Made by a program: the position numbers and the translations under genes
The notes under the pieces: model-generated
Databases searched by the model: none
The model's input: only the letters and a program-made list of their open reading frames with translations
What the model was told of the DNA's origin: nothing
Origin: a virus
Direction: 5' to 3' (one strand)
DNA length: 64,000 bases
Virus record (IMG/VR): IMGVR_UViG_3300031088_000737
Span: 64,001 to 128,000 of that record
Part shown: piece after piece, positions 363 through 48,735 of the stretch
Numbering within the stretch: the stretch's first letter is position 1
Layout of the letters: each line of letters starts with the position of its first letter

Positions 363-1361
363 TTAAATTTTAAGCATAGTGAGTGATATCAGATAACTTT
401 GAAAAGCTTCTGGTGTTTGAAATTCTCCAATTGTTGGATCTATTTTTAATTTTGTTACATCTTCAACAAAGGATGTAAATATTGGATCATAAAAATCTTG
501 ATAATTATCAGAAATATATTTTAAAATAACTGTATCCATTTCAGTTTGACTAATTGAATAATTTTTTTGAATATTGACATTGATTATATTGTCCCCCATA
601 TATTCTAAAATAAATTTCATTTTTTTATCTAGACGTGACTTCATGCCATTATTAAAGGATGCAAATAGAGTATGGTTTTCAAATAAATGGTGGACAGCAT
701 TAAACATTTTTGAGAGGTTAGCATTATATAGCTCTACTTTTTGTTTAATTTCAGTAGGCAATGTAATAGATGAATTACAAGTCAGTAGATCATTTATAAA
801 ATGAGCTTCACCCACGTAAACTGGATTCTCTTTAATATGTATGATATTGCTATCATGACTAAACCCATAATCTGTTTTTAAAATTCTTACAAGACCATCA
901 TGACCACTAGCTACCTTTCTCAATCTGAAATTGCCAAAGATAGGAATGCTCACATCAGTTACAAAATCGTAAGACTCTCCACTTTCCATTGAGCTTCTTA
1001 TAATAATTTTTTCAAAAATGTCTTTAAAATATTTTGTTGAATAAGACGTTTCACTATTTTCAAATCGAGCGGTTGTATAATTGTCTTTTGAATCTATTGT
1101 CAATGAAGTATTATTCAAATTCCCATTTTTTCTCACTCTTAAACCTATAGTTTTGTTTCTACTATCAAAGTAAAAATGAAGGTCAGATGGATGTTGATAG
1201 TTGATTAAGATATAAGTCAAGAGGTTGTCGATAGGTTCAAAGGTTTTAGAATTATAAAAAACGCCATCTTTTTCTATATATTCAAGTGAGCTTAATTCAC
1301 ATCCAAGAAGACTTAAAAATTTAAGGGCGTTGTCTAATTCTTTTGTTTCAAAGTTCAGCAT
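363..1361 (-). CDS. Hypothetical protein (332 aa) ending in the M-x-x-I C-terminal tag
   Basis: Long ORF ending ...QSYLISLTMLKI; upstream AAAGGA RBS. Confidence 0.75.
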   Translation of the reverse strand: MLNFETKELDNALKFLSLLGCELSSLEYIEKDGVFYNSKTFEPIDNLLTYILINYQHPSDLHFYFDSRNKTIGLRVRKNGNLNNTSLTIDSKDNYTTARFENSETSYSTKYFKDIFEKIIIRSSMESGESYDFVTDVSIPIFGNFRLRKVASGHDGLVRILKTDYGFSHDSNIIHIKENPVYVGEAHFINDLLTCNSSITLPTEIKQKVELYNANLSKMFNAVHHLFENHTLFASFNNGMKSRLDKKMKFILEYMGDNIINVNIQKNYSISQTEMDTVILKYISDNYQDFYDPIFTSFVEDVTKLKIDPTIGEFQTPEAFQSYLISLTMLKI

Positions 1362-1417
1362 GGGTTTTAGTCCTTTTTATATTTTTTAGCAAAAAGACCT
1401 TTTCAAAGGTCTTTTAT

Positions 1418-1606
1418 TTAAACGTAAACGTCTATGCGTTGATGTACTGTATTATTTTGTTCTTGTTCTATCTTATTAGTCTCGTAGACATGCTTTTGGA
1501 TTTCAACGTCTGTGTTCACTTTTCTGTTGATGACATCACGTTCATGAACTACTTTGGTAACGCTGTAAGTGCAATGATTGTTTACATTAAAATTAATAGT
1601 GCTCAT
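1418..1606 (-). CDS. Small hypothetical protein (62 aa)
   Basis: AGGAG RBS; followed by the hairpin AAAAGACCT-TTTCAA-AGGTCTTTT at about 1391-1415. Confidence 0.65.
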   Translation of the reverse strand: MSTINFNVNNHCTYSVTKVVHERDVINRKVNTDVEIQKHVYETNKIEQEQNNTVHQRIDVYV

Positions 1607-1927
1607 AAGTAAATCTCCTATAGATTTTTTACAATGTGATTATACTCTTTTTCTTGTTTGTTTTCAAGTCTTATTTGATATTTTAATCGAAGCCCCGTAA
1701 AAAAATAAAAAATATATTTTCTTTATTTAATAAGTAAATATTGATTTTTAAATATTTTTAATAATTATTTATTGAACTGTAATTGCAATTTATCATTCAA
1801 ATGATATTCTGTATTAAAATATATTATTCGTTTTTTGAATACAATCATAAATTAGAAATAAAAAATAGTCTTCAATTATTAATATATATGCTAGTATATA
1901 AATAATTTACTAATAAAGGAGTTCACC

Positions 1928-2521
1928 ATGATTAAAAAAATTACTTTATTTGCAGCATTACTAACTTTATCTGGATGTAGCACTTATTATGAAATGAAAA
2001 ATTGTGATCCAGAAAAAAATTACATTAATTCCAATCCAGAGGCATTAGAAAATTATAAAAAAATTGTTGCTGCTGGTGAGGTTAACAGTTATTATTTAAA
2101 AATTATTCCAACTCCATCATGTGAAAATAATAAATGTATATCATATGAAATTAATAAATATGATTTTATAGAAATGTATTTTAATGATAGTTCACGACAA
2201 GGAATTTATACAATTAAATTAAGCACAGATCCTTTGGATAAAAACTGTATTAAAAAGCAGTATAATTCTGATAAAAATTGTTATTCTGTAACAAAAAACC
2301 TTGATAATAAAATTCGTTCCCGTTTTTATTTAGAAGCAAATTTTACAGGAAACTTATTTTATCGAAAATTTGTCGATCTTCAAGAGAATGTTGAATTATT
2401 TACATCATCCTATCAGGTATATCATATACCAACAGCATTAGACAACCCGTCAGGGGGCATCTGTAAAACAAAGAATACACCAGAAGAATACATTTTTGAC
2501 ATTACAAAATATCCAAAATAA
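1928..2521 (+). CDS. Lipoprotein, putative immunity/partner of the downstream lipase-RTX protein (copy 1)
   Basis: Lipobox LSGC after a short hydrophobic signal; AAGGAG RBS; paralog of 2562..3152. Confidence 0.8.
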   Translation: MIKKITLFAALLTLSGCSTYYEMKNCDPEKNYINSNPEALENYKKIVAAGEVNSYYLKIIPTPSCENNKCISYEINKYDFIEMYFNDSSRQGIYTIKLSTDPLDKNCIKKQYNSDKNCYSVTKNLDNKIRSRFYLEANFTGNLFYRKFVDLQENVELFTSSYQVYHIPTALDNPSGGICKTKNTPEEYIFDITKYPK

Positions 2522-2920
2522 AAATAAATAGACCCAAGTTAAATAACTTAATGAGTTTACCATGATTAATAAAATTACTCTACTGACAGTATTATTGGCT
2601 TTATCTGGATGTAGCACTTACTATGAAATGAAAAATTGTGATCCAGAAAAAAATTACATTAATTCCAATCCAGAGGCATTAGAAAATTATAAAAAAATTG
2701 TTGCTGCTGGTGAGGTTAACAGTTATTATTTAAAAATTATTCCAACTCCATCATGTGAAAATAATAAATGTATATCATATGAAATTAATAAATATGATTT
2801 TATAGAAATGTATTTTAATGATAGTTCACGACAAGGAATTTATACAATTAAATTAAGCACAGATCCTTTGGATAAAAACTGTATTAAAAAGCAGTATAAT
2901 TCTGATAAAAATTGTTATTC
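1988..2920 (+). repeat. Direct repeat: 1988-2286 identical to 2622-2920 (299 bp, offset 634)
   Basis: Base-by-base comparison. A further 22 bp upstream also match apart from one mismatch (1987 T vs 2621 C). Both 3' thirds have diverged. Confidence 0.9.
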
Positions 2921-3152
2921 AGTTACGAAAAATAATAATGAAATTAAATCAAGATTTTATGTAGAATCAAATTATAATAATCATATTTTTTATAAGAAAT
3001 TTACAGATTTAAAAGAAAACATTGTTTTATTTGAATCTTCATATCAAGTTTATCATATACCCACATCATTAGATATTCCATCAGGTGGAGTATGCCATAT
3101 AAAAAACAATCCAAAAAATTATATTTTTGATATTTACGGATATCCAAAATAA
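2562..3152 (+). CDS. Lipoprotein, putative immunity/partner of the downstream lipase-RTX protein (copy 2)
   Basis: Lipobox LSGC; tandem paralog of 1928..2521. Confidence 0.8.
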   Translation: MINKITLLTVLLALSGCSTYYEMKNCDPEKNYINSNPEALENYKKIVAAGEVNSYYLKIIPTPSCENNKCISYEINKYDFIEMYFNDSSRQGIYTIKLSTDPLDKNCIKKQYNSDKNCYSVTKNNNEIKSRFYVESNYNNHIFYKKFTDLKENIVLFESSYQVYHIPTSLDIPSGGVCHIKNNPKNYIFDIYGYPK

Positions 3153-12038: not shown

Positions 12039-12197
12039 TTAATCCTCATTATATTCTATTGGTCAACTATATTATTATAATACAAAAGAGATAATTATAC
12101 AATCTTTTATTTTGATAATATTAATAAAGCAATATTAGTATACTTGCTGTTTTGAGCTTTTTTTAGTATAATTGAAATTATAAAAAAGGTATTATTG

Positions 12198-12836
12198 ATG
12201 AGAAATAACGAAAAACACTATAACATAAATAAATTATTTAAATTCGATGAACAATTATTAGAAGATTTTTCAAAAGAATCTGCGATTCCACTGGTCAAAC
12301 CCATTGGTATCTTTCATCTTGCGATTAAATTAAAAGAAGACGAATCTCCTTGTGTTGATGGTATTGGTTATCCCGCTCTCATTTGTCGCTATATCTTGAA
12401 AGATTATATGAAAGAAGATTATGACTTTTATTTACAAAATATTTTCGCTAAAATGAAACGTTATGGTAATTATATTAATGTCCAGTTTCAAAGACAAATA
12501 AAAAAAACAATAAGTATTACCTTATCTGATAATTATACTTCAATTAAGGATATTACCTCAATTAGTTTTGATTATGATATACACTTGCGTGATAAAAAAC
12601 ATCTCTATCCAGACGCCACAGTGACCATCGTTTTTAAAGGCGAATCAATCTATGAGTTCAGTATGGATGAAAATAATGAACCACACATTAAAATGGTTGT
12701 TAACTATAATGATTTAGATGGTTTCTTCGTTAAATTTATGGAAGCTTATAAAAATAAGTTTGCACGAAAAATAGGTGTACATCGATCAACAAATACTAGT
12801 CAACTTAAAACGTTGGTTGATATAGTTCTTTTTTAA
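12198..12836 (+). CDS. Hypothetical protein, paralog family A
   Basis: Clearly similar to 12901..13557 (YIL..YMKEDYD.FLQ.IF.K.K.YG; VINYNDL.GFF.KF). Confidence 0.8.
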   Translation: MRNNEKHYNINKLFKFDEQLLEDFSKESAIPLVKPIGIFHLAIKLKEDESPCVDGIGYPALICRYILKDYMKEDYDFYLQNIFAKMKRYGNYINVQFQRQIKKTISITLSDNYTSIKDITSISFDYDIHLRDKKHLYPDATVTIVFKGESIYEFSMDENNEPHIKMVVNYNDLDGFFVKFMEAYKNKFARKIGVHRSTNTSQLKTLVDIVLF

Positions 12837-12900: not shown

Positions 12901-13557
12901 ATGAAAAATGATGTAGATAATTTTTTAAATGTTGATGATTCTCTTTTAAAAGTAATAGAAGATGAAGTATCTCTTATGATTATTGGTACCCATGATGGTT
13001 GTTCTATTTTTAATATTCAACCAATGAATCATTCACGTTTAGAAATCAAATTACAGGAAAACCAAAAACCTTTTTTTTATTATATAGGCGATCCATCTAT
13101 TATATCTCGCTATATATTAACACAATACATGAAAGAAGATTATGATGTATTTTTACAATCTATTTTTCATAAAATTAAAAACTATGGCAAGTTTCTGAAT
13201 ATTGATTTTAATAGCTTCACAAAAATAAACATGAATATTACGTTAGCTAATGATTATCAATCTATTAAAGATATTATATCTGTATGTTTAGTCTATAGAA
13301 TCCTGATCAGAACACATCAATATTATGCCATACATACAGAGCTTACTATTGTATTCGAAGGCGAGTCTCTTTACGATTTTAATTTTACGCAGGGTGATTA
13401 TGCAACACTTAAAATGGTTATTAACTATAACGACTTAAATGGATTTTTTCTTAAATTTGGTGAGGTATATAGAACTGATATTGCAAAAAAATTAGAATTA
13501 CCCGTTTCAACAGACATGAATCAAATGCTCATATTAGCTGAAATGTCGGTAATTTAG
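12901..13557 (+). CDS. Hypothetical protein, paralog family A
   Basis: Paralog of 12198..12836; ends LAEMSVI. Confidence 0.8.
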   Translation: MKNDVDNFLNVDDSLLKVIEDEVSLMIIGTHDGCSIFNIQPMNHSRLEIKLQENQKPFFYYIGDPSIISRYILTQYMKEDYDVFLQSIFHKIKNYGKFLNIDFNSFTKINMNITLANDYQSIKDIISVCLVYRILIRTHQYYAIHTELTIVFEGESLYDFNFTQGDYATLKMVINYNDLNGFFLKFGEVYRTDIAKKLELPVSTDMNQMLILAEMSVI

Positions 13558-13613: not shown

Positions 13614-13697
13614 TGGTGCGGAAAGTGGGACTCGAACCCACACGCCTCTCGGCACTGGCTTCTAAGACCAGCGTGTCTACCATTCCACCATTTCCGC
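13614..13697 (-). tRNA. tRNA-Leu(UAG)
   Basis: Full cloverleaf; anticodon stem CTGGT/GCCAG, loop CTTAGAA; long variable arm, A73, encoded CCA. Confidence 0.95.
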
Positions 13698-14275: not shown

Positions 14276-14279
14276 AATC

Positions 14280-21977: not shown

Positions 21978-22718
21978 TTGAAAAACCGAATACGATACGC
22001 TATGCCTCTCACCATTGATGAATTAGAGCATATCATTTTCAAAGTTGGTAAAACTGCAGTATTTGATGACAATGTAATAAAGTCATCACTCTTAGAGCAA
22101 GCTGGCTTTATTTCTATTCTTGATTTAGAAGCAAGCGAATATCTTTTTAAATCCTTTGAACATTACATCTTATTAATCAACATAGAACGTTTGATTAACA
22201 CAAATAAATTCTACATATCATCAAAATCTTACATATTAAACAATGAACGAAATATCAGCATCATTAAAAACTTAAATCGTGATAATTATCTTCATATTTT
22301 ATCAACTGTTGGTGATTCAGAAGAAACGTTGATTGGTAATAAATTTTACATTACGAATAACACAAAAGCCTATAAAGAAGTTTTTGATTTTCCTGAGCAT
22401 CTTGATATGGGAGTAACATATAGCGTATTTAAATATCAAGATTTCAAATATCGTATTGAACAAATTTGGATGGATGGTATGTTTGATGTTCAATATATTT
22501 CAAATGAAGATAATAACAATCTTATTGTAACGGACTTAACATTCTCTGAATACGGAACGTTGATAGCCTATTCTGTTGAAAACAAGAAAGGGTCAGTAAA
22601 ATCTAGTAACCTAAATTCATTGATTGATACCAGCCATGTTAACATAGACAACTATCATTCATTTTTCCAAAAAATCAATAAAGAAACGTTAACGGTTATT
22701 GAAATGCTTATTGAATAA
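21978..22718 (+). CDS. Hypothetical protein, paralog family B
   Basis: C-terminus IDNYHSFF...VIEMLIE shared with 23534-25880. Confidence 0.75.
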   Translation: MKNRIRYAMPLTIDELEHIIFKVGKTAVFDDNVIKSSLLEQAGFISILDLEASEYLFKSFEHYILLINIERLINTNKFYISSKSYILNNERNISIIKNLNRDNYLHILSTVGDSEETLIGNKFYITNNTKAYKEVFDFPEHLDMGVTYSVFKYQDFKYRIEQIWMDGMFDVQYISNEDNNNLIVTDLTFSEYGTLIAYSVENKKGSVKSSNLNSLIDTSHVNIDNYHSFFQKINKETLTVIEMLIE

Positions 22719-23533: not shown

Positions 23534-24292
23534 ATGCTGGATATTAAAAACATAGAACCTGACATTTTATTCATTACTAAAAGTATACCTACCGATATCT
23601 TTATGGCGGCTTTGACAACCATTGGTTCGACCGTATATTTTTACGAAGATGAATCTATTATTAAAGATATTTTGCTTTTTCATGGATTCAAAGATATCAG
23701 CTCAACATTACGAACTATCCACTATAAGGTTACTAATGGAAAGATACTTCTCATTCATATAGAAGATTTTTATGTCCGAGATAAATACTGGATTCAATTA
23801 ACGGATAAAAATATTAATTATATTGAAAATAATTTAAAAGAATACGATGACCCCTTGGACTCATTAGATTGTATTAATGAGGGTATTTATCAATTGTATG
23901 ATACAACTTTAGAAATTCCATTTAATGAAATGTTTGATGTTGCCCATATCATTGATGAAAAAATTAAAATTAATAAAATTGAACTTTCATTTAAATACGA
24001 AAAAGATAAAATGATGTCAATTAGAATTTTTCATCGAAAAGGCAGTTATATCCATATAAGTTATATAAATTACGTTGATAAATTTGATTATCTATATTCG
24101 GACTTTATTGAATTTGTTGCTGGCCGCATGAATGTCGCACGATTAATCAATAAAACAAAAAAAATAAATTTAGATATTACATCTGATTCTGATATTGTTG
24201 ATGTAGCCACTCTTACCTTGGATAACTTTCATTTATTCTGGAAGAATTTTACACCCGAACAAAAACTGCTTGTTGAAATGTCTGCAATATAA
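23534..24292 (+). CDS. Hypothetical protein, paralog family B
   Basis: EKY/DKYW, FKY..D and TLDNFHLFW motifs; ends VEMSAI. Confidence 0.8.
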   Translation: MLDIKNIEPDILFITKSIPTDIFMAALTTIGSTVYFYEDESIIKDILLFHGFKDISSTLRTIHYKVTNGKILLIHIEDFYVRDKYWIQLTDKNINYIENNLKEYDDPLDSLDCINEGIYQLYDTTLEIPFNEMFDVAHIIDEKIKINKIELSFKYEKDKMMSIRIFHRKGSYIHISYINYVDKFDYLYSDFIEFVAGRMNVARLINKTKKINLDITSDSDIVDVATLTLDNFHLFWKNFTPEQKLLVEMSAI

Positions 24293-25115: not shown

Positions 25116-25880
25116 ATGATGGATTTGGAAAATACCGATATACACTTATTGTTTGTTGATATAGAAACAGAAAAAGAGACGCTTTGTCGTTATTTAAGCA
25201 CACCAGCAACTACTGTTTGGTTTGAAAGTCATCGTTCAGAATTATTTTATGATTTGCTTATAAAATCAGGTTTTCAACAATTTAAAAATTTAACAAAATT
25301 GTACTTTCAAGTTTTTGGTGAATTGATCTTGATTATTAATGTTTATGAGACAAATGTTAAAGAAAAATATTGGATTAAAAACACTGAAAGTAATCTGGAA
25401 TTCGTTCAGAAAGCAGATTTAAATTATGAAAGCTCCTTTCAAAGTTATTACAGTGATGCTGCACAACAATATAATCTGTATCCAGAAGCGGTCGATGTTC
25501 CGTTTTTTGAACACTTCGAAATTAGACAAACAGGTAATTTATTTTTAAATAAACCGAGCTTAATTCGTGTAGATATTGGTTTTAAATATGCTCCCGATCA
25601 ATTTATTATTGCTTCTCTTTTTAAAAATGATAAAAATACTGTTCATATTTGTTATGATGACTATAATGATAATTCTAAAAAAACATATCCTGACTTTATA
25701 GAATTTGAAGGTAACCAATTAAGTGTTGTGCAGATGTTAAATAGAAAAACTAGTAAAAAGATATCACTGCTAGAAGAAAACATGTTTGATAGCACACAGA
25801 TAACCTTATCGAACTTTCATTTGTTTTGGGAGCGAATGACAGCCGAAGAGAAAACACTATTAGATATTTTGTTAATTTAA
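25116..25880 (+). CDS. Hypothetical protein, paralog family B
   Basis: GFKYAPD, TLSNFHLFWER; ends LDILLI. Confidence 0.8.
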   Translation: MMDLENTDIHLLFVDIETEKETLCRYLSTPATTVWFESHRSELFYDLLIKSGFQQFKNLTKLYFQVFGELILIINVYETNVKEKYWIKNTESNLEFVQKADLNYESSFQSYYSDAAQQYNLYPEAVDVPFFEHFEIRQTGNLFLNKPSLIRVDIGFKYAPDQFIIASLFKNDKNTVHICYDDYNDNSKKTYPDFIEFEGNQLSVVQMLNRKTSKKISLLEENMFDSTQITLSNFHLFWERMTAEEKTLLDILLI

Positions 25881-37595: not shown

Positions 37596-37643
37596 TGACA
37601 AATCATTAATCGTATGTTATAGTTATTTTATTTGGAGTTTTAC

Positions 37644-38456
37644 ATGTCTTTTTATAATATAGCTCTTTCACTTTGTATTGGTGATGTTGAATTAGTCAGC
37701 ATACCTAGTCAATATTTAGAACCAATCAATTTTCCACACTCTCTTGAAGATATTAAAAATGTTGTGATAAATTTTGGTGACTCCTATGTAAAATGTGATA
37801 TAAAAATTGAATTTTCTTTTTTTAGTAATAATTTAAAAACCATTACTATTAATGGTAATGACATTTGTTATAAACGTTTATTTGAATTTTTGGATGAAAC
37901 GAATCCAACAGAACAAATATCAGTAGCTGGATTCGAAAGATTTCAACTTTCATTTTCATTAATGGCACAAATTGGTGGCGGATTTACTCGACGTATTCCT
38001 AACAAACCTGTTGTCCAGTCATATAAAAATGGAATTCTTGATGTTTTAGAATTTATGATGATTGATTATCATTATAATGTTACTGATTACTCGCAATTTA
38101 AACAGTGGCAAAAACCAACAACTTTATATTTCAATGAAGATGGGACAATTAAAGGACAATATTCCTATATTCGTTTCGAGAATCAAAGACGTAACAAGAA
38201 AATGGAAAAGATTCAAATTGATGAGTACATAAAAACAATGAATGCATTGATAGGTCAAAATCTTAAATTAAATTATCAAACATATGAATTTGAATTTGAA
38301 AACTACACATTAAATTTAGTCGATGAATTAATTATTGATATGTATTTTTATTTTGATGATTATAAAATAAATAAAGAAATAACATTTAACAATAGAGATT
38401 ATTTATTTCATTTAACACCTGATGAACGAATAGTATTGCAGATGCAAGTAATTTAA
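37644..38456 (+). CDS. Hypothetical protein, paralog family C
   Basis: Similar to 38508..39317 (FP..LEDI..V.I, NKPV...Y, P....FNE.G); ends LQMQVI. Confidence 0.78.
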   Translation: MSFYNIALSLCIGDVELVSIPSQYLEPINFPHSLEDIKNVVINFGDSYVKCDIKIEFSFFSNNLKTITINGNDICYKRLFEFLDETNPTEQISVAGFERFQLSFSLMAQIGGGFTRRIPNKPVVQSYKNGILDVLEFMMIDYHYNVTDYSQFKQWQKPTTLYFNEDGTIKGQYSYIRFENQRRNKKMEKIQIDEYIKTMNALIGQNLKLNYQTYEFEFENYTLNLVDELIIDMYFYFDDYKINKEITFNNRDYLFHLTPDERIVLQMQVI

Positions 38457-38507: not shown

Positions 38508-39317
38508 ATGTCAAAGCATGTCGATATGTCATTTACTGCAGCTAATAAGGAAATATTAAGTGTATCTGGGGTTACTTTTGATAACACTTCCTTCCCATTT
38601 GTCTACGAAGACATTGAAAAAGTTGTTATTTTAGTTGATGATGACTTTGAAGAAACAAAAGTAGTTGGATTAAATATTTACTTATTGGTTGATCATGAAA
38701 CCAAACTCTTTAGATTTAATATCTTCGATAGCGATTTAACAACACTCTTTAAAACGATTGATAGTTCAGTAAAACCTCTGGTGATTGGCTTTGACCCTTA
38801 TTTTCAATTAATGAGCGTTAAATTTATACCAAAAGGTATCTATGGCTTATACAAGGATAATGTTAACAAACCTGTTAGAACTGTTTATGATGAATTAGGC
38901 ATAGTAAAAAACTTAACCTATCTGGATGTTGATCCTAATCAGTCGGATTTGAATTATTACAATGCATCTTGTCATACAACCCCTAAGTTTATTGCCTACA
39001 ATGAATTTGGTGAATTGGATGAAGACAATTCGTATTTCTCAATACATAGAAAGAACACCACTTTCATTGTGGCCACTTATAAAGACCACTTAGCTTTAAT
39101 AGAAAATATCACTAAGAAAAAGGCTTTTTTTAATTTGGAAGAACACAAAGTGATGATTGAAAATGAATTGCTTTCTGTTAATGACCTCATCTTATTAAGG
39201 CTCTATTATTCCTTTAATTATTACAAACTTAAATTTAATCTCGAATATCAATCGAAAGAAGATATTTTTAATTTTTCCGATAACGATAAAGCCTTAATTT
39301 CTATGTTATTGTTCTAA
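38508..39317 (+). CDS. Hypothetical protein, paralog family C
   Basis: Paralog of 37644..38456; ends ISMLLF. Confidence 0.78.
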   Translation: MSKHVDMSFTAANKEILSVSGVTFDNTSFPFVYEDIEKVVILVDDDFEETKVVGLNIYLLVDHETKLFRFNIFDSDLTTLFKTIDSSVKPLVIGFDPYFQLMSVKFIPKGIYGLYKDNVNKPVRTVYDELGIVKNLTYLDVDPNQSDLNYYNASCHTTPKFIAYNEFGELDEDNSYFSIHRKNTTFIVATYKDHLALIENITKKKAFFNLEEHKVMIENELLSVNDLILLRLYYSFNYYKLKFNLEYQSKEDIFNFSDNDKALISMLLF

Positions 39318-39612: not shown

Positions 39613-40401
39613 TTAAATAGTTCCCATTTCAATAATTTTCATGTAATCTATTTTTTCTTCAGTTGTTAGTTGTTTTAAATCAGCCATTGTCATTTTAAAA
39701 TTATTTTTTAGTAAGACATCCATATGTTCTTTTACTTTTGATTCATAATCATTTTTAAAGCCTAACAATTCTACTTCCTGATTACATTTGTTATCTTCAT
39801 GAATGTTTAAATATAGGTAATACCGTTTTTTAGCAGATACAGGGTAGGAAACTGTCAAAACAGGCTGTAGTTTGTTATTCTTAACTATGAATCTTAGTTC
39901 TATATTAATTGTACAAGCATAAACCATTTTTTTGTAATCTGGATCAAATTCAACTAAGGCATTTGAAAGCGTTACGACACCAGCCGTTTTGAATGAGCTG
40001 TTTTTTTCAATCAATTTACTTTTAAATTGTCCTTCTATCGAGCAGTCTTTTATTTCAATTTTTTTCACGAATCCATATCGTTCACCAATGATATTGAAAT
40101 CATTAAACATATTATTTAGATAAGTGTAGTCATAGTTTTTATTTCCAAATAACTGATCAATAGTTTCGTTTTCTACATATCTAAATTTCATCGAACAGTG
40201 ATAGTCATACGACATATTGGGAATCAATCGTTGAGGTTTAGCAAACACACAGGCTACGGTACTGGTATTGTATTTAACTGTTTCATCAATGCCTACAACT
40301 TCATAAATGGAATACTTGTCTTTTGGACACAAATACTTTTCAAAGGATGTATTATCAAACATCTCATGATAGGCTGCTAATACTACCTCTGCATTGATCA
40401 T
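39613..40401 (-). CDS. Hypothetical protein, paralog family D
   Basis: NY.Y, G..F, L.P.L.V..P motifs; ends TEEKIDYMKIIEMGTI. Confidence 0.8.
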   Translation of the reverse strand: MINAEVVLAAYHEMFDNTSFEKYLCPKDKYSIYEVVGIDETVKYNTSTVACVFAKPQRLIPNMSYDYHCSMKFRYVENETIDQLFGNKNYDYTYLNNMFNDFNIIGERYGFVKKIEIKDCSIEGQFKSKLIEKNSSFKTAGVVTLSNALVEFDPDYKKMVYACTINIELRFIVKNNKLQPVLTVSYPVSAKKRYYLYLNIHEDNKCNQEVELLGFKNDYESKVKEHMDVLLKNNFKMTMADLKQLTTEEKIDYMKIIEMGTI

Positions 40402-40412
40402 AGACACTCCGA

Positions 40413-41258
40413 TTAAATCATGGACATTTCAGCAACTTTCAAATAATTCAATTTATCTTCAAAGGTTAATGTTGCTAAATATTTATTTTTTAGTTTTAAT
40501 TCTTTTCTTAAAATCATATCCACTCTTTCTTTTAATACGATATCTAACTTAGACATCGCTTTTTCGAGTTGTCGTTCATTAAACGCTTGTCCATCTGGAT
40601 GAATATCAACAGTAATGAACATTTTGTCACTGATAGAAATGGGGAATGTAATCTCTGCTAATGGATGAATAACACCGTTAGTGACAGCAAACTTATAGAC
40701 TATTGTAATTCTTCGGCTTCTTAATTTACCATTTCTGGTGTTGTTTTTAGTTTTGAAGAAGTCTGCAAAATTAACTTCTGATATCTTAGTCTCAGTGGGA
40801 ATAAGTTTTGTAGAAATTCCTTTAAATTGATAAGCTTTTTTAAAGTAATGATGAAGAGCGGGATCTTTAATGGTTTCCAATGATTCAAATAAAGCATGTT
40901 GTTGCCCCATTGCAAAGCAATCATTGATAACTTTATTGACAATTTCATAATTATAGTTCACTTGACTAAATAGAGAACTTACAAATTTTTTGTTGAGATT
41001 AGAAAACTGTAAATAAGTATAAAACTGATAATCTTCTTTTTCTTGTGGATACCCAGTGTTATAACTAAAAGCCATATATATTTCTTCATTTTCTTCATCA
41101 ATTTCTTTTTGCTTAACAGCTTTATTTCTTGATTTAATAACCCCAACGACACCCGTACTTGTACTAGAGTTTGCGTCGTAAAACGAAGGCTTATCAAAAG
41201 CGGTTCCCTCAAAAAGTTTTAAATAGGCGTCTAAGCAGGTTATTTGACTTTCATTCAT
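40413..41258 (-). CDS. Hypothetical protein, paralog family D
   Basis: IHPLAEITFP, DIHPD; ends AEMSMI. Confidence 0.8.
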   Translation of the reverse strand: MNESQITCLDAYLKLFEGTAFDKPSFYDANSSTSTGVVGVIKSRNKAVKQKEIDEENEEIYMAFSYNTGYPQEKEDYQFYTYLQFSNLNKKFVSSLFSQVNYNYEIVNKVINDCFAMGQQHALFESLETIKDPALHHYFKKAYQFKGISTKLIPTETKISEVNFADFFKTKNNTRNGKLRSRRITIVYKFAVTNGVIHPLAEITFPISISDKMFITVDIHPDGQAFNERQLEKAMSKLDIVLKERVDMILRKELKLKNKYLATLTFEDKLNYLKVAEMSMI

Positions 41259-41288
41259 GTAAGGCTCCATAATTTAACAGTAACGGTA

Positions 41289-42107
41289 TCATATTTCCGA
41301 CATTTCTGCAATCGTTAAATAGTTGATTTTATCTTCTGTTGTTAACGTTGCTAATGTTTTATTAGTAAATTGTAATTCTTTTTTTAACACCTGATTGACT
41401 CTTTTAATCAATCTTTCTTCTAGTTCAGATGAGTATTTGATCAATCGTTCTTCAGCTTCTTGTTTCTGATCCGGGTGGATATCAAATGCGAGTTCTATAC
41501 TGGCATTGGGTGCTACAGGGTAATCAATCATTGCTATTGGATGAATTTCATTGTTTCTTAAAACAAAATGATAACATAAGGTCATATTTTTACCTTTTAA
41601 TTTTTTTGCACCTCTTTCTAGTTTATGCAGTTCAGTCTTATAGAAATTTGAAAACTGTATATTTGAAATATTTTTTGTGCTGGCAAATTGTGTGTTTTCG
41701 TAATGCGTCCACAAATATCTTGAAACTAACGTTTCTTCAATTTTAATATATTTAACTGGCTTTAAAGTTTTAAACAACTTATAGGTTTCACCTAGTGTGT
41801 ATAAATGTTTTATTGCTTTTTCAATGAATGCATAATTATATTGATGTGGCTTTAACAGTTCCCTCACTGTTTTTATGTTTATATTTTCGAAGCCAATGAC
41901 ACATTCTTTTTCATAATCCACACATTTATTTGGAAATCCAACCTTATCCTTAAATCTAAATATTACCTTAGATGAAGATTCTTTCATATCTACGATGAAT
42001 GCATGGTTGAAATAATGATTACTTTCACCTGTATTGATTTGATCGATGTCTTGATCTTTAAAAAAGTCTTTACAGACTTGAATAAGATTGTTTTGTTCTT
42101 CGCTCAT
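41289..42107 (-). CDS. Hypothetical protein, paralog family D
   Basis: IHPIAMIDYP, DIHPDQ; ends AEMSEI. Confidence 0.8.
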   Translation of the reverse strand: MSEEQNNLIQVCKDFFKDQDIDQINTGESNHYFNHAFIVDMKESSSKVIFRFKDKVGFPNKCVDYEKECVIGFENINIKTVRELLKPHQYNYAFIEKAIKHLYTLGETYKLFKTLKPVKYIKIEETLVSRYLWTHYENTQFASTKNISNIQFSNFYKTELHKLERGAKKLKGKNMTLCYHFVLRNNEIHPIAMIDYPVAPNASIELAFDIHPDQKQEAEERLIKYSSELEERLIKRVNQVLKKELQFTNKTLATLTTEDKINYLTIAEMSEI

Positions 42108-42143: not shown

Positions 42144-42947
42144 TCAAATCGTGTTCATGTCTATGACAATGAGGTAATTTAATTTTTCTTCTAACGTCAT
42201 GGCCGCAATCTCTTCTTTTTTCATTTTAAGTTTTCTTTTCAAAACACTTTCAAAATGTTCTTCTAAGATCTTTGCAAAACGAATCTTTTCTTTTTCCAAA
42301 TGTTCTTTTTGAGCCACTTCTTGTGATGGGTGTAAATTTAGTTTTACCAAAAAATCATAAGATGAACTATAAGGCAACGATATACTGACAATCGGTTGAA
42401 TATCAAGACTCTCAGAAAGATAAAAGTTGTTATGAATTTTTGCCACTTTCTTTTTCAAGTTATCAGCAGACGATCTTTTGTCCGTCATCATGGGAGAAAA
42501 CGATATTTTTGTTAAATGTTTTTGTTCACTCTTGGCAACTTTTCTTACGGTTGTGTATAATTCTTCAAGTTTTGTGTGCTTTAATTCGGTAATTTCTTTG
42601 TAGAAACCAAACTTGTGACCAATTTTATAAAGAGATTGAACGGTATCATGAATAGCTTGATAATTATAGTTTTGGGCATTAAAAAAGTCTGTTAATATGT
42701 CTTCTTTTATGTCATTACCAATTATTTCACACATATATGGATATGATTGTCCATAAAACTTGGCTCTATTTGAACGGTAAAAGTTAAATTGTAAGCTAGT
42801 GCTGGTAGGTTCTCCTTTGCGTTTGTAGATACTTTTAATATTTGTCATTATAAAATCACCTTCTGTTTGAACAATTTCATTTTCAGAAGGCAATAAATTT
42901 TGGGTCATTTTATTAAAAGCATTTAAGTAAATTGTTAATTCATTCAT
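42144..42947 (-). CDS. Hypothetical protein, paralog family D
   Basis: Start MNELTIY at 42947 (GAGG RBS); NLHPSQ; ends IDMNTI. Confidence 0.8.
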   Translation of the reverse strand: MNELTIYLNAFNKMTQNLLPSENEIVQTEGDFIMTNIKSIYKRKGEPTSTSLQFNFYRSNRAKFYGQSYPYMCEIIGNDIKEDILTDFFNAQNYNYQAIHDTVQSLYKIGHKFGFYKEITELKHTKLEELYTTVRKVAKSEQKHLTKISFSPMMTDKRSSADNLKKKVAKIHNNFYLSESLDIQPIVSISLPYSSSYDFLVKLNLHPSQEVAQKEHLEKEKIRFAKILEEHFESVLKRKLKMKKEEIAAMTLEEKLNYLIVIDMNTI

Positions 42948-43001
42948 TTTACAAACCTCTTTCGTGAGGTCTATTATATCAAAAAAAAGAACTTTAATCA
43001 A

Positions 43002-43790
43002 CTAAATTGAATTCATTTCAAGTATCGGAATGTAATTTAATTTTTCTTCTAATGTTAATCGAAAAATTTCATCTCTGGTTAACTTCATTCGTTTGTTTAA
43101 TAAGAAATCTAAATGATCTTCTAACAATTTTTTAAAATCATTAATTTGCAATTCTAAATTTTCTAATTGACTTTCTTTTTGAGATGGATGTAAATAAATT
43201 TTCACCATGAAACTAGATGATGAGCAATAAGGAATTGTTAAATAAAGAATAGGATGTATCTCGTTATCATCACTTACAAAAAATTCAACACGATGACTGG
43301 CAACCTTATTGAGTGGTTTGCCATCATTTCTAGGCTTTAAAAAACTAGCTAAATTTAATTTGCTTACATTTTTTACAGTAATTCGTGGTTCATCAAAGCC
43401 ATAGTCAAAGCTATCATGTAGTTTAATATTTTTTATTTCTTGCATATTGTTAAAGAAACTAAATGATTGACCTACTTTAAAGCAATCGACCATTGCTTTT
43501 TCAACTAATTCGTAATTGTAGTTTTGAGCTTCAAAAATGTCTTTTAATAGTTCATAAGGCACATCTCTTGTTCGTATCTGACAATGAGTGTCGTAACTTT
43601 CTTGACTAGTCTTCTTGTCAGGATAAAAGCTAACATTTATATAGTAGTTAAATTTTGATTTGTCTTCTGGTTCATTGACACTGACAAATTCATGTTGAAC
43701 CCCATGTTGTCGATAAATGACACGATTTTCTGGTGTTTGTTTGACTATTAATTTATTAAAAGCTTCTTTGTACCTATCTTCTTTGTTCAT
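43002..43790 (-). CDS. Hypothetical protein, paralog family D
   Basis: IHPILYLTIPY, YLHPSQ; ends LEMNSI. Confidence 0.8.
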   Translation of the reverse strand: MNKEDRYKEAFNKLIVKQTPENRVIYRQHGVQHEFVSVNEPEDKSKFNYYINVSFYPDKKTSQESYDTHCQIRTRDVPYELLKDIFEAQNYNYELVEKAMVDCFKVGQSFSFFNNMQEIKNIKLHDSFDYGFDEPRITVKNVSKLNLASFLKPRNDGKPLNKVASHRVEFFVSDDNEIHPILYLTIPYCSSSSFMVKIYLHPSQKESQLENLELQINDFKKLLEDHLDFLLNKRMKLTRDEIFRLTLEEKLNYIPILEMNSI

Positions 43791-43813: not shown

Positions 43814-44623
43814 TTAAAATTTTACCATTTCTACTAACGGTAGATAACTCATTTTTTCTTCTAAGGTTAATTTCAGTATATCTGCTTTTTTGAGTTTGAG
43901 CGATTTATTTAAAAGGATGTCGATATGTTCAGTGAGTAATACTTTGAAATCATTTAGTATTGAAGGTATCGTATTAATCATTTCTTCTTTTTTTGATGGA
44001 TGTAAATTGATTGAAACCATCATATATTTGTTCATTGTATAAGGTATAGATAAACTCAATACCGGGTGAAGTCTATTATCTTCTGACAATTTAAATTCAA
44101 GACGATAAACAAGTGTTTTTTTCTTTTCATTACCATTGGGTGTTTTTGTAGCAATAACAGTTGAAAGCGATATCTTTGTTGCCGTTTTTATTGATTCTGA
44201 TATGTAATAGAACCCGTGGCTATAACTGTCACTTATTTTAAAATCATGAACAGGTGTGAATGTCGTAAAAAATTTAAATTCTTGGCCTATTTTTATCAAG
44301 TTCATTAACACTTGTTGAACTAATTCATAATTGTAAGTATTGTTACTGAATATTTTAGTTATGTCCTCACTTGGCATATTTTGAAGCTGAAATTTACAAG
44401 AAGTATCATAATACGTTTCACCGACTTTCTCTAATTTAGCATGCTGAGTAAATACGCATGAAATCGCTTTACGATCAGGTAAGTTGTCATTTTTGACAAG
44501 ATGTATCAAACTATCAGAGTTATCCATAGAATTCTCAATCCTTGTATAAACAGGATTTATCATTTTTCCTAAGAAATGATGAAAAGCTTTTTTGTATCTT
44601 TTTTCTTTATCAAAATGTATCAT
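43814..44623 (-). CDS. Hypothetical protein, paralog family D
   Basis: LHPVLSLSIPY, NLHPSK; ends VEMVKF. Confidence 0.8.
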   Translation of the reverse strand: MIHFDKEKRYKKAFHHFLGKMINPVYTRIENSMDNSDSLIHLVKNDNLPDRKAISCVFTQHAKLEKVGETYYDTSCKFQLQNMPSEDITKIFSNNTYNYELVQQVLMNLIKIGQEFKFFTTFTPVHDFKISDSYSHGFYYISESIKTATKISLSTVIATKTPNGNEKKKTLVYRLEFKLSEDNRLHPVLSLSIPYTMNKYMMVSINLHPSKKEEMINTIPSILNDFKVLLTEHIDILLNKSLKLKKADILKLTLEEKMSYLPLVEMVKF

Positions 44624-44634: not shown

Positions 44635-45198
44635 TTAAATTTTAACCATGTGAAAAAGTGCTAATTCTTCTTTTGTATATTTATTCAGTGGTTTTTCCAA
44701 AAAACCTTGCAACCTTTGAGAATAAAACTGTTCATGTACGGCATCTATTGTTTTATCTATTTTAGAAAGCATGCTGGGAGCAAACTGAAATTGAAAGGAT
44801 GCAGCAACTGTAGACACTTTTATTGTTGGGATAGCATATAATTTTTTAGAACGTTTATTGTAATAGAAATAAGTTTCCTTCAAATAAAAAACAACTTTTC
44901 TTTTATTTTCTATAATATTTTCATATTTGTCGATAAGATCTCTATTTTCATCGTAAGCTGCTAAAATAGCATCGTAAATCGATTTGTCAGCCGCTTCAAA
45001 AATCTTACGGTATTCATCACTCTCATGATCTCGACTAACGTACATGGTATTTCCATCATTAACCTTGGCAAAAAGTTTATGAGTACCAATATCAGTAGAT
45101 GGAAGACTTATTTCAAAATCTGTTTTGTTATTATAACTCACTTTTATTTTCGATTCATCTAACTCTAAAATATCAGTAATTTTTTCTACCAACGTCAT
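44635..45198 (-). CDS. Hypothetical protein, distant member of the tagged families
   Basis: AGGAG RBS gives start MTLVEKIT at 45198; ends TKEELALFHMVKI. Confidence 0.75.
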   Translation of the reverse strand: MTLVEKITDILELDESKIKVSYNNKTDFEISLPSTDIGTHKLFAKVNDGNTMYVSRDHESDEYRKIFEAADKSIYDAILAAYDENRDLIDKYENIIENKRKVVFYLKETYFYYNKRSKKLYAIPTIKVSTVAASFQFQFAPSMLSKIDKTIDAVHEQFYSQRLQGFLEKPLNKYTKEELALFHMVKI

Positions 45199-45451
45199 AA
45201 TTTTTCTCCTACATAATTTCAGGATTATACATGAACATAACATTTTTTGCAATGTTTTATTGACTTCACCGTGTTTTTTGCTTATAATTGAGATGTGCTT
45301 TATTGAGAGCGTGCTAAATAGGCGAGATGGCGAAACCGAACTGGTATCAATGATTATGTTTTCATTAATCAAACAACCCAACTTAATTGATCCTTAAAAT
45401 AAGTTGATTCCTATTTGTCGAATTATAACACTATTTTAATGGAGAATAATT

Positions 45452-46923: not shown

Positions 46924-46931
46924 GGTGGGAT

Positions 46932-47132
46932 TTATACAAGTGATGAGCGTGCTGAGGCTTCCGATGAGTCTTTTCTCAAAGAAGCCTTATTAAAGGAGTT
47001 TTTACCTTCTCCACGTTTGGATTTAGCTTTTTTATCTTCTACAATACGAAGACCACAGTTACCCATTTCATGCATATATTTAGCAACGAAATTTCTTGAC
47101 TCTTGTGGCTGTTGATTCTTTTTCATTTTCAT
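46932..47132 (-). CDS. Small basic phage-type protein (RNFVAK motif)
   Basis: 66-aa ORF with AGGAG RBS; N(P/F)VAK...DKK.K..RG pattern recalled from small phage proteins. Confidence 0.65.
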   Translation of the reverse strand: MKMKKNQQPQESRNFVAKYMHEMGNCGLRIVEDKKAKSKRGEGKNSFNKASLRKDSSEASARSSLV

Positions 47133-47270
47133 TTCACTACTCTCCTAGTTATTTCCCTATAATATCATAGTATTTAAAGAAAATAAAGCCTTTTAAGATC
47201 AAAATTATAAAAAAATAAGTTGCCTAAATTTTGTTCATGATTTATACTTCAGTTGATATGATTGGAGAGT

Positions 47271-48008
47271 ATGAAAAAAATGAATGTTAAATCATTAGTG
47301 CCTGCTTTTTACTTTAAGAATTACCATTCTTTTGTATTGCTCAATTCTATTATTTTTTTAATTTTATCAATTCCTTTCCCAACAGTTGATGATTGGTCAT
47401 TAAATGGAATGAGATATCTTTTAGACTATCCTATCATGTTCTTTCTAACACTGTTGGTTGTATCAAATATTGCACTGTATTCTAAAAGTTTTATATCTAA
47501 ATCTTATCCATCCATACAAGACAGCATGTCCGATTTTTTTAATGTTTATTGTGTCTATGTTGCCATTATTTTAAAAGTTATGTTTCAACTTGGATGTATT
47601 TCTTATTACCTTTATGAAAAAAACATGACAACATTTCCATCAGCAAAATGGATGTTGGGAACGATGGCTTTATTTTATTTCTTATCACTCCTGAGTATTG
47701 GGCATTTTGTCTTTCATTCAGTTAAAGGCACTTATAAAAGGTACAAAACACCAGCCCACAAGAACCACTGGATTATGGAATATCTCAATCCTAAGCAACT
47801 TCGAAAATTAAAAAACATTTCTAGCAATGGAAAAATCGTTTCTATTTATTTTAATGGATTTCTTCTAAATGAAGCTGATAACAGTGTTGTGATTAGACAA
47901 TATAAGCTCAAACTGAATGCATTTCGAGACTATATTACACTTAACAATTTAAAATTAGATGATTTGAATGATGACGAACTTAAAGTCATTGAAATGCTAG
48001 GTATATAA
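47271..48008 (+). CDS. Four-TM membrane protein with soluble C-terminal domain, family E
   Basis: Paralog of 48025..48735 (KNHW..E...KQ.R, GK...IYF.GFL.NE.DN); ends VIEMLGI. Confidence 0.82.
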   Translation: MKKMNVKSLVPAFYFKNYHSFVLLNSIIFLILSIPFPTVDDWSLNGMRYLLDYPIMFFLTLLVVSNIALYSKSFISKSYPSIQDSMSDFFNVYCVYVAIILKVMFQLGCISYYLYEKNMTTFPSAKWMLGTMALFYFLSLLSIGHFVFHSVKGTYKRYKTPAHKNHWIMEYLNPKQLRKLKNISSNGKIVSIYFNGFLLNEADNSVVIRQYKLKLNAFRDYITLNNLKLDDLNDDELKVIEMLGI

Positions 48009-48024
48009 TTATGGAGTTTAAGTC

Positions 48025-48735
48025 ATGAGAGTTCAACTGGTTTTACCCACTATTTATATTTACAATTATCATGCTCTCAATATTGTAGCCTGTCTTTTGT
48101 TTCTTGGTCTGCAAGCGATTGTTGGCGATGATTATTTTGAAACGGTTTCATTTATTCAGCCGATTATTAAATATTCTCTAGTATTGTTACTGATTTTAAA
48201 CATTGTATTATTGATCAAGTCAATCCTTGTTAAAACGTATACCAGCCTTAATGAAAGTCAAAAGGATATCTATCAAATCATGAGTTTCATCATCATGATT
48301 TCATTTAAAGTGTGTATTATGGTATTAGTATTCTTTATGTGGCTTGGTGTCTTTGAAAAAGATTACATGAATATCACTGTTCATATTATTATAGGGTGTT
48401 TCTTTTTTATTTATTGTCTTTCATTTTTACTATTTTTATATTTTAGTATGATAGGTATTAAAAATAGAATAAATCATGTTAAAGTAAAAAATCATTGGAC
48501 TTTTGAGTTCATGAGTGAAAAACAAATAAGAAACGTTAAAACCTATCAAGAAGAAGGTAAGGTTATAGGTATTTATTTTAAAGGATTTCTGGTTAATGAA
48601 AAAGATAATGAGCTGACGCTCAATGGTAAGCCGCTTAATCTCAACTCATTCAAATTTTACATGAACAATAAAAAGTGCAAAATTGACGATTTAACCGATG
48701 AAGATATAGCCATTATCGAGATGTTAGGAATCTAA
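48025..48735 (+). CDS. Four-TM membrane protein, family E
   Basis: Paralog of 47271..48008; ends IIEMLGI. Confidence 0.82.
   Translation: MRVQLVLPTIYIYNYHALNIVACLLFLGLQAIVGDDYFETVSFIQPIIKYSLVLLLILNIVLLIKSILVKTYTSLNESQKDIYQIMSFIIMISFKVCIMVLVFFMWLGVFEKDYMNITVHIIIGCFFFIYCLSFLLFLYFSMIGIKNRINHVKVKNHWTFEFMSEKQIRNVKTYQEEGKVIGIYFKGFLVNEKDNELTLNGKPLNLNSFKFYMNNKKCKIDDLTDEDIAIIEMLGI

Follow-up and report, generated by a model that had tools for sequence, protein, structure and literature searches.

A C-terminal tag on unrelated proteins of a plasmid-like giant mobile element looks like a docking label, with export as its most likely role

We found that many proteins of an AT-rich giant mobile element, which is megabase-sized and plasmid-like, end in a common tail with methionine as the fourth-last residue, Met(-4). 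The tail is a protein-level signal locked to the C-terminus, and is a modular tag rather than the end of one superfamily. We read it as an address or docking label of a kind not described before, which would most likely serve export; a literature search found no published description of it. The window analyzed here is a stretch of 64,000 nucleotides (positions 64,001 to 128,000 of the IMG/VR record IMGVR_UViG_3300031088_000737), and the tail was also counted in the whole 181,270-bp record and in a distant 290-kb relative, G001.

Met(-4) was present in 45 of the 194 open reading frames (ORFs) of at least 80 amino acids in the whole record (binomial p 3.9e-28, with Met taken as 2.8% of residues), and the other positions from -8 to -1 held only 1-6 Met each in the same ORFs. 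The rate was 4.6% among 525 ORFs from unrelated control loci. All 18 tails listed by an initial annotation of the window, 16 with Met and two with Ile at -4, are present at those genes (Table 1). The annotation had proposed that the tag marks a large element-specific class, and this class proved larger than the approximately 18 proteins first noticed, with about 40 further Met(-4) proteins in G001; carriers of the tail account for a fifth to a quarter of the genes of the element. By contrast, Glu(-5), also regarded as part of the tag, occurred in only 29 of 83 pooled tails and has to be dropped from its definition.

In the pooled tails, a set defined by Met at -4, hydrophobic residues occupy -9, -7, -6, -3, and -1 and are best kept at -9, -7, -6, and -1; position -1 was hydrophobic in 98% of them, in a pool partly selected for a hydrophobic final residue. 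Acidic residues reach 46-48% at -5, -11, and -15, Lys is common at -12, and runs of Glu were not seen. The tail helix is about two-thirds hydrophobic with one polar stripe. The information content is confined to the final 15-18 residues of the carriers, and similarity further upstream is weak (acidic -15, Thr -13, and, in some families, an HTH-like turn 'LG[IV]S'). Since all three types of stop codon follow the tails, their codons vary, and the DNA after the stop is unconserved, the signal lies in the protein and not in the DNA, in agreement with the initial annotation. The median leave-one-out score of the tails against a position matrix was 12.2 bits, and none of 51,347 windows was a true internal match at 10 bits or more; the two top "internal" matches sit 1 and 3 residues before a C-terminus.

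The tail in the distant relative G001 is an independent replication. Only 20 ORFs were common to G001 and this record by BLASTP, and the genes common to both relatives include PTH2, a DEDDh exonuclease, a trypsin-like peptidase, and a 594-aa and 458-aa gene pair. A matrix made from this record, from which the Met column had been deleted, separated Met(-4) tails from other tails in G001 (p 2e-20) and scored at least 10 bits at 15 of 430 G001 C-termini versus 4 of 73,430 internal windows.

Table 1. Tagged genes of the window and its ClpA-type gene (window positions; aa, amino acids; TM, transmembrane).
Position	Strand	Feature	C-terminus	Basis or remark
363..1361	-	Tagged orphan, 332 aa, singleton family	...LTMLKI	No above-threshold Pfam family
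12195..12836	+	Ile(-4) variant, 213 aa, paralogue of 12901	...VDIVLF	
12901..13557	+	Tagged orphan, 218 aa	...AEMSVI	
21978..22718	+	Tagged orphan, 246 aa	...IEMLIE	Glu at -1
23534..24292	+	Tagged orphan, 252 aa	...VEMSAI	AF2 model, pLDDT 83.8
24303..25082	+	Tagged paralogue, 259 aa	...IEMLMV	
25116..25880	+	Ile(-4) variant paralogue, 254 aa	...LDILLI	
37632..38456	+	Tagged orphan, 274 aa	...LQMQVI	L009 and L011 orthologues retain Met(-4)
38508..39317	+	Tagged paralogue, 269 aa	...ISMLLF	
39613..40407	-	Six-gene tandem family, member 1	...IEMGTI	Alignment
40413..41270	-	Six-gene tandem family, member 2	...AEMSMI	Alignment
41289..42107	-	Six-gene tandem family, member 3	...AEMSEI	Alignment
42144..43001	-	Six-gene tandem family, member 4	...IDMNTI	Probable start 42947
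43002..43790	-	Six-gene tandem family, member 5, 262 aa	...LEMNSI	AF2 model, pLDDT 89.7
43814..44623	-	Six-gene tandem family, member 6	...VEMVKF	Alignment
44635..45381	-	Tagged orphan, 248 aa, own family	...FHMVKI	
47262..48008	+	Tagged membrane protein, 4 predicted TM segments	...IEMLGI	Hydropathy
48025..48735	+	Tagged membrane paralogue, 4 predicted TM segments	...IEMLGI	Hydropathy
57545..59842	-	Untagged divergent ClpA-type AAA+ unfoldase		Pfam AAA_2, AAA, ClpB_D2-small

Within the window, the Met is invariant in the alignment of the six-gene tandem family despite 21-35% identity between members. The protein at 21978 is linked to the 23534 family (hhalign probability 92%), and its ending is retained across all its homologue clusters. 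The Ile(-4) tail at 25116 scored 7.1 bits, the top score among non-Met(-4) proteins, and the pre-tail region of the variant at 12195 is weakly similar to that of a tagged 492-aa protein, g165353p (hhalign P 0.0024). The L009 orthologue of the protein at 38508 has one additional residue (...MLLFQ). Two genes had initially been placed at 37644 and 47271, which are alternative starts within the ORFs 37632-38456 and 47262-48008.

The carriers sort by sequence into about 33 families and show at least four architectures (soluble alpha+beta, beta-meander, membrane proteins with 3-4 TM segments, and a phage-type domain), and this variety, together with fast-changing bodies behind conserved tails, identifies the tail as a modular tag. 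Five carriers have 3-4 TM segments by hydropathy, no signal peptide was predicted in the carriers, and one carrier contains the phrog_21276 domain, whose homologues in jumbo phages do not have the tail. These architectures bear out the earlier view that the bodies are unrelated, and the absence of the tag from recognizable enzymes was likewise confirmed: none of 48 carriers had a Pfam match, versus at least 40 of 131 untagged proteins (Fisher p 9e-7). In hhalign comparisons of the bodies, tag-versus-tag pairs scored the same as tag-versus-untagged controls, and several top pairs align immediately upstream of the removed tail. The AF2 model of the protein at 43002 has an alpha+beta body, a 34-residue helix, and three short helices, the last of which is the tail; that of the protein at 23534 has a beta-alpha-beta-alpha arrangement, a 7-strand meander, and then two short C-terminal helices. 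A PDB fold search found no significant match for either model, the search lists were disjoint, and the topologies differ between these two soluble families. The tail helix had a pLDDT of 70-87 in both models, with only the final two residues at low confidence. A single divergent superfamily, which the initial annotation had set against its own reading, was not supported by the control-level hhalign scores, the occurrence of TM and soluble carriers, or the two topologies of the two soluble families folded, although some of the families may still be linked by deep homology.

Comparison with orthologues indicates that the tagged bodies evolve much faster than adjacent genes while the tails stay conserved. 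Tagged bodies were 50% and 77% identical to their orthologues, versus 76% and 86% for untagged neighbours, and the tails were 69% and 94% identical. For the protein at 44635, the tail is 71-79% identical to those of its orthologues and the body 37%; for the membrane protein at 47262, all 14 of 14 tail positions are identical to the L011 orthologue and the body is 41% identical. In two families, Met(-4) was present in 52 of 53 database sequences among the matches listed, the exception being a fragment. By analogy, the evolution of the tagged proteins may be called effector-like.

The element was found on contigs longer than 1 Mb in at least three assemblies, with sizes of 1.84-1.86 Mb. It resembles the pMEGA megaplasmids of Enterobacteriaceae, a likeness by shared hallmarks alone: megabase size, a GC content in the high twenties to about 30%, about 80% hypothetical genes, large tRNA arrays, tandem paralogue runs, single host-type genes, ClpA, type IVb pilin-like genes, and the absence of virion genes. 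The pMEGA elements differ in being at most 1.58 Mb, and the text of the paper describing them has no "C-terminal" and no such tag (bioRxiv 10.1101/2025.09.30.679422). A search of 471 kb of the lineage (this record and G001) recovered no virion genes: capsid, portal, terminase, and tail families were absent both from the Pfam families listed for 273 untagged proteins and from the PHROG matches of ten large proteins. The element has tRNA arrays, RtcB, PTH2, and RNA repair of the Pnkp type, as well as one phrog domain that also occurs in jumbo phages, and the largest ORF of a "96% complete" relative encodes 633 aa. Both this record and G001 are listed as proviruses in IMG/VR.

The best explanation, to which we assign a probability of roughly 35%, is that the tail is a label read by a type IVB (Dot/Icm) machine for the translocation of the tagged proteins. 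The label would be a C-terminal helix of about 15 residues, hydrophobic at -9, -7, -6, -4 (Met), -3, and -1 and carrying a single polar, often acidic stripe at -5, -8, -11, and -15, which would mark a large, fast-evolving set of accessory proteins for one shared, presumed reader. The free C-terminus is probably part of the recognized feature, because the helix stops three residues past the Met. The most likely reader would be the coupling complex of a secretion and conjugation machine, presumably of the Dot/Icm type, encoded elsewhere on the element, and the tagged proteins would be exported into recipient or target cells. In the DNA searched, no reader was found.

The Dot/Icm signals of Legionella and Coxiella (E-block or Glu-rich, read by DotM; PMC5802825) resemble the tail in occupying the last 15-30 residues, in combining acidic and hydrophobic residues, in the apparent importance of the terminal residue, and in their occurrence on hundreds of fast-evolving orphans, some of them TM-containing and often in paralogue arrays. 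The tail also lies within the last 20-35 residues, where a Dot/Icm signal is expected. Such a signal would further have a Glu-rich, net-acidic block at about -10 to -17; in the tail this stretch is often acidic at -11 and -15, with frequent Lys at -12 and no Glu run. DotM binds acidic effector tails, and an L-to-E change at the extreme C-terminus of the Legionella consensus signal was reported to abolish transport (PMC5802825); TM-containing effectors are also exported by type IVB systems (PMC11602083), and the pMEGA megaplasmids encode a complete Dot/Icm system with DotL, DotM, DotN, IcmW, and the rest (bioRxiv 10.1101/2025.09.30.679422). However, Dot/Icm signals are degenerate, disordered, and statistically defined, without an invariant residue, whereas the tail has a fixed Met(-4) and register and is predicted to be helical with moderate to high confidence in the monomer. 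The 21978 subfamily stably ends in Glu, the residue that abrogates transport when placed last in the Legionella consensus (PMC5802825). Secretion substrates encoded by a fifth to a quarter of genes would be very numerous, and the contigs of the element exceed every described pMEGA in length. The 181-kb and 290-kb records yielded no type IVB genes, and T4CP and VirB4 families were absent; this counts only weakly against a type IVB machine, because both records are fragments.

The constant tail on variable bodies also follows the logic of adaptor families, in which the tail would be a handle plugging into one conserved cytoplasmic hub (e.g., a scaffold, chaperone, polymerase, clamp, or ribosome-associated factor; compare F-box/PRANC, dockerin, and clamp-binding tails) and the bodies would supply targets or activities. 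The clamp-binding tails of T4-family phages are hydrophobic C-terminal peptides, and a modular, position-locked helix that is largely hydrophobic with a single polar stripe would suit insertion into a deep groove. We nevertheless consider such a handle doubtful, as no candidate hub was found, the few genes common to the two relatives (PTH2, DEDDh exonuclease, etc.) contain no known peptide-binding domain, and membrane-embedded carriers would be odd for a clamp- or polymerase-type hub. Non-polar C-terminal tails and the ssrA tag are classical degrons for ClpXP, ClpAP, FtsH, and Tsp, and Parsell, Silber, and Sauer reportedly worked on such non-polar tails as degrons in 1990. A degron read by AAA+ proteolysis of the element (ClpA with ClpP, or FtsH) could keep costly or toxic proteins short-lived; the strict C-terminal lock and the non-polar last residues suit recognition of a free end, and FtsH could process soluble and membrane carriers alike. 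Under this reading alone, the divergent element-specific ClpA nearby, with best identities of 39-43% across about 185,000 species genomes, would be a candidate reader, and pMEGA-type elements encode ClpP, ClpA-like proteins, and three FtsH copies (bioRxiv 10.1101/2025.09.30.679422). Known degrons, however, are shorter and unstructured, lack a conserved Met, do without a capped acidic helix some 15 residues long, and do not occur on a fifth of a proteome, whereas the tail is not an exposed unstructured peptide but helical in the AF2 models of two families. The 471 kb searched, which consists of fragments, yielded no ClpP, making and destroying a fifth of all gene products seems wasteful, and fast-evolving bodies with a constant tail suit delivery or docking better than turnover. 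Such a role is therefore unlikely.

The well-predicted tail helix, the weak similarity reaching upstream of it, the best hhalign pairs that align right before the cut tail, and the many carriers in tandem arrays, like diverged paralogues, could also fit a structural cap, that is, the last helix of a small C-terminal module spread by duplication or shuffling, with the Met packing into the core of each carrier. This appears quite improbable, since a cap needs no exact end three residues past the Met, as seen in more than 80 unrelated proteins including membrane proteins; body homology was not detectable by hhalign, and the region upstream of the tail is a long helix in one AF2 model but a beta-meander in the other. 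Virion packaging had been among the roles first suggested for the tag, which would then be a C-terminal counterpart of the T4 capsid-targeting or encapsulin cargo peptide for co-injection. The internal proteins of T-even phages are unrelated and have only the targeting peptide in common, and the provirus listing and the phage-flavoured gene content would agree with such a role. The T-even sequence (IPI, IPII, IPIII, Alt) is likewise a short constant peptide on unrelated hypervariable proteins of one element, but it is N-terminal, cleaved by the prohead protease, and confined to a handful of proteins, whereas the tail is C-terminal and on about 20% of genes. Packaging is very unlikely because no virion genes were found in the 471 kb of the lineage searched; in addition, the largest ORF of the "96% complete" relative is short, elements of a similar kind have been reported to be plasmids that lack virion genes (Guitor et al., bioRxiv 10.1101/2025.09.30.679422), four-TM proteins would be poor capsid cargo, and the distinct cargo proteins would be far too many.

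Returning to export, the tail may also be compared with type I secretion substrates of the protease/lipase/HasA class, which are said to carry an acidic-then-hydrophobic extreme C-terminus (Ghigo and Wandersman, 1994). Like the tail, this motif follows an amphipathic helix, and it is intolerant of extension, as the tail would be, but type I substrates usually have RTX repeats. The one RTX-type protein of the window (3179-10108) is untagged.

Translation of the open reading frames (ORFs) recovered all of the protein ends reported in the initial annotation, namely 16 proteins with Met as the fourth-last residue (-4) and two paralogues with Ile in that place. Over the whole 181,270-bp source record, Met occupied -4 in 45 of 194 ORFs of at least 80 aa, and each of the other last-eight positions held 1-6 Met. 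With a background of 2.8% Met among all residues, this excess corresponds to a binomial p of 3.9e-28, and the Met(-4) rate in unrelated control loci was 4.6%. The tails were followed by TAA, TAG, and TGA stops, their codons varied, and the DNA downstream of the stop showed no conservation. Therefore, the constraint acts on the protein, as had been proposed, and a DNA-level motif at the stop codon was rejected on the same grounds.

We pooled 83 tails from the record and from G001, a distant 290-kb relative bearing the tag, with Met at -4 as the defining criterion. Hydrophobic residues made up 87% at -9, 95% at -7, 89% at -6, 71% at -3, and 98% at -1, the last figure being inflated because the set was partly picked for a hydrophobic final residue; Ile alone accounted for 65% at -1. 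A polar stripe was formed by acidic residues in 46-48% of tails at each of -5, -11, and -15, and Thr or Ser often capped the helix at -13 or -17. Thus, in the 'E-M-x-x-I' tag first described, Glu at -5 is common but not a defining feature. A position matrix of the tail gave a median leave-one-out score of 12.2 bits and found no true internal window of at least 10 bits among 51,347; the best two apparent internal matches were tails lengthened by 1 and 3 residues, and one orthologue in a relative carried a single extra C-terminal residue. These results indicate that the motif is locked to the C-terminus, apart from rare short extensions.

The bodies of the tagged proteins (carriers) appeared unrelated. 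After removal of the tails, 48 carriers fell into approximately 33 families by BLASTP, phmmer, and hhalign, with the 18 window proteins representing seven. The sole cross-family link joined 21978 with the 23534 family (genes are named by start position), and profile scores between tagged bodies were no better than those between tagged bodies and untagged controls. In addition, two families were folded from alignments of 25-26 sequences each. In the model of 43002 (pLDDT 89.7), from a tandem six-gene family, a 34-residue helix and then three short helices come after an alpha+beta body. The model of the 23534 family (pLDDT 83.8) begins with a beta-alpha-beta-alpha unit, continues with a seven-strand meander, and closes with two short helices. 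Their fold-search lists did not overlap. The best Foldseek E-values (0.028 and 0.04) and VIA Z-scores (6.3 and 6.2) lie within the stated noise of these tools, so neither model was assigned a fold, and a p32/gC1qR-like resemblance of the 23534 family is only a lead. A homodimer prediction for 43002 scored 0.00, which is evidence neither for nor against dimerization. As far as sequence, profile, and fold searches can test, the bodies do not form one divergent superfamily, in agreement with the initial annotation, and the tail behaves as a module.

Five carriers had 3-4 predicted transmembrane segments, the remainder being soluble, and no signal peptide was found in any carrier. A Pfam match at E ≤0.01 was found for 0 of 48 carriers versus at least 40 of 131 untagged proteins, as tallied from family lists (Fisher p 9e-7), which bears out the claim that recognizable enzymes lack the tag. 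One 492-aa carrier contained a phrog_21276 domain common to jumbo phages of Xanthomonas, Stenotrophomonas, and Pseudomonas (44-56% identity); in the homologues from Xanthomonas phage XacN1 and Tenacibaculum phage PTm1, the tail is missing and the C-terminus is a different one.

Syntenic relatives were found on ENA contigs of 1.84 Mb (ERZ27281805:k141_522346) and 450 kb. Tagged bodies shared 50% and 77% identity with their orthologues on these two contigs, versus 76% and 86% for untagged neighbors, whereas the tagged tails shared 69% and 94%. The tails of untagged proteins (80% and 88%) showed no comparable gap. In one membrane carrier, the body was 41% identical to that of its orthologue and the tail was identical at 14 of 14 positions. 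Among the database sequences listed for two families, Met(-4) was kept in 52 of 53, the exception being a truncated fragment, and in one subfamily a Glu ending was stable. G001, an IMG/VR record located via a 594-aa protein at 39% identity, had only 20 ORFs in common with our record, yet Met(-4) occurred in 46 of its 430 ORFs. The matrix trained on our record, with the Met column removed, separated these G001 tails from the rest (p 2e-20), and this constitutes an independent replication of the helix around Met. Pattern scans for the six-gene family in IMG/VR, JGI metagenomes, and GTDB genomes gave no match; the relatives were obtained solely through a protein index and, for a single IMG/VR record, through the 594-aa family. 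Two further records carrying PTH2, G002 (GC 38%) and G003 (GC 49%), showed no tag in the flanks sampled and were rejected as members of the tag-bearing lineage.

The source record, of which the window spans bases 64,001-128,000, is classified as a provirus in IMG/VR (CheckV completeness 58%) and has a GC content of approximately 30%. Tagged genes extend past both of its ends, and three or more assemblies have identical proteins on contigs of >1 Mb. The 471 kb examined contained tRNA arrays, aminoacyl-tRNA synthetases, RNA-repair enzymes, isolated host-type genes, and many orphans. The ClpA of the window shares only 39-43% identity with the ClpA of any of approximately 185,000 species; therefore, the DNA is unlikely to be the genome of a cell from a known lineage. 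An atlas look-up of this ClpA yielded nothing on the host. Two G001 tRNAs (loci L107 and L108) have a CTA anticodon of the amber-suppressor type. Stop-codon recoding was rejected as the cause of the small G001 ORFs, since they gain hardly any length when TAG or TGA is treated as a sense codon.

These features may be likened to those of the pMEGA megaplasmids on the basis of shared hallmarks; neither sequence nor sample accession yielded a link to them. Elements of this kind have been reported from gut Enterobacteriaceae, among them E. coli and Salmonella. The pMEGA of Enterobacteriaceae are circular, 1.3-1.58 Mb in size, and low in GC (25.98% for pMEGA4), with hypothetical genes making up approximately 80%, as many as 208 tRNAs, and paralogue runs of two to eleven (bioRxiv 10.1101/2025.09.30.679422). 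They lack phage structural genes and code for ClpP, ClpA-like proteins, three FtsH copies, and a complete Dot/Icm-type system, with DotL, DotM, DotN, and IcmW among its components (bioRxiv 10.1101/2025.09.30.679422). The term 'C-terminal' does not occur in that paper, which makes no mention of the tag (bioRxiv 10.1101/2025.09.30.679422).

The helix is approximately two-thirds hydrophobic with a single polar stripe, and its end is fixed three residues after Met. These properties would fit a handle that inserts in the groove of one reader, which would also sense the free C-terminus. The carriers are numerous, orphan, and fast-evolving, lie in paralogue arrays, lack Sec signals, and in some cases span the membrane, a profile matching that of Dot/Icm effectors, whose signals also lie at the C-terminus and combine acidic with hydrophobic residues. 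In those signals the last residue matters and DotM is the reader (PMC5802825), and type IVB systems also export transmembrane effectors (PMC11602083). On these parallels we rank a type IVB (Dot/Icm-type) translocation signal first, with a probability of roughly 0.35. Several points count against this reading: the fragments G000 (our record) and G001 yielded no such system, tagged genes make up a very high share of the total, a Glu ending occurs in one subfamily, and known Dot/Icm signals are fuzzy and disordered, whereas the tail is strict and predicted to be helical. A bolder and doubtful extension is that, on a giant conjugative plasmid-like Gram-negative element, the Met(-4) helix would be a universal export ticket, with which a Dot/Icm-type machine encoded by the element itself would deliver several hundred fast-evolving proteins to recipients or competitors, an arsenal on the Legionella scale; the whole effector set could then be read straight from sequence.

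Searches for ClpP, T4CP, VirB4, and DotB-type ATPases gave nothing significant in G000-G003, records that may be fragments. Alternatively, the tail could act as a degron, directing its carriers to Clp or FtsH proteases of the element; the window encodes ClpA. It could also be a handle for another hub, which a groove-inserting helix would suit, or a purely structural cap. Least likely is a virion-packaging signal: although the record is annotated as a provirus, no virion genes were found in the 471 kb examined. Secretion genes were not found there either. Two candidate partners were rejected. The 594-aa and 458-aa gene pair offered nothing beyond co-occurrence as a reader, and the 2309-aa protein, considered as a cohesin-like scaffold with repeated docking modules, showed no internal repeat by self-BLAST and is a lipase with RTX-type repeats.

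Full-text literature searches found no description of the tag, which is best filed as an unusually strict C-terminal addressing signal. One recognizable end-label, borne by a fifth of the genes, would provide a first functional handle on the very large set of genes of megabase-sized mobile elements that have no known function. Should the tag serve export or docking, sequence alone would suffice to list every client of one machine, which the fuzzy signals of Legionella-type effectors do not allow. If these elements are of the pMEGA kind, the tagged proteins would be prime candidates for roles in plasmid establishment, competition, or action on other cells.

Table. Features in and around the window (L, numbered loci)
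Feature	Position	Strand	Remarks
Tandem paralogous lipoproteins	window 1928-2521 and 2562-3152	+	LSGC lipobox
2309-aa protein	window 3179-10108	+	N-terminal lipase-like domain (GHSLGG motif, Mbeg1-like), then long RTX/HCBP-type calcium-binding repeats
Array of 11 tRNA-Leu plus tRNA-Gln	window 13614-15500	-	several anticodons
tRNA call (ARAGORN)	window 15232-15317		four-base anticodon (cgct); within tRNA-Leu array
Gene pair, ~594 aa and 458 aa	window 17688-20845	+	
Gene pair, further copies	L001:18135-19943 with L002:1940-3490; L003:1207-4600		
MsrA (methionine sulfoxide reductase)	window 55593-56027	-	two genes from ClpA
ClpA	window 57545-59842	-	divergent
Trypsin_2 small trypsin-like peptidase paralogues	L002:15857-16528; L002:16665-17165	-; -	
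Trypsin_2 paralogues in G001	8066-8746; 136433		
492-aa tagged carrier	L007:1453-2931	+	phrog_21276 domain

The 594-aa/458-aa pair, present in three copies on the record and at least two in G001 (37-39% identity), matched nothing in Pfam or PHROG. Invariant Cys, His, and Asp in the C-terminal part of the 594-aa protein hint at a possible novel Cys-His enzyme. The 2309-aa protein lacks the tag and resembles substrates of type I secretion. MsrA lies near ClpA on an element whose tag hinges on an invariant Met, which may well be coincidence. The Trypsin_2 paralogues are among the few genes common to both tag-bearing records. Additionally, coordinate arithmetic places the start of a 1.28-Mb relative contig at about the lipoprotein pair, which suggests a repeat-induced assembly break.
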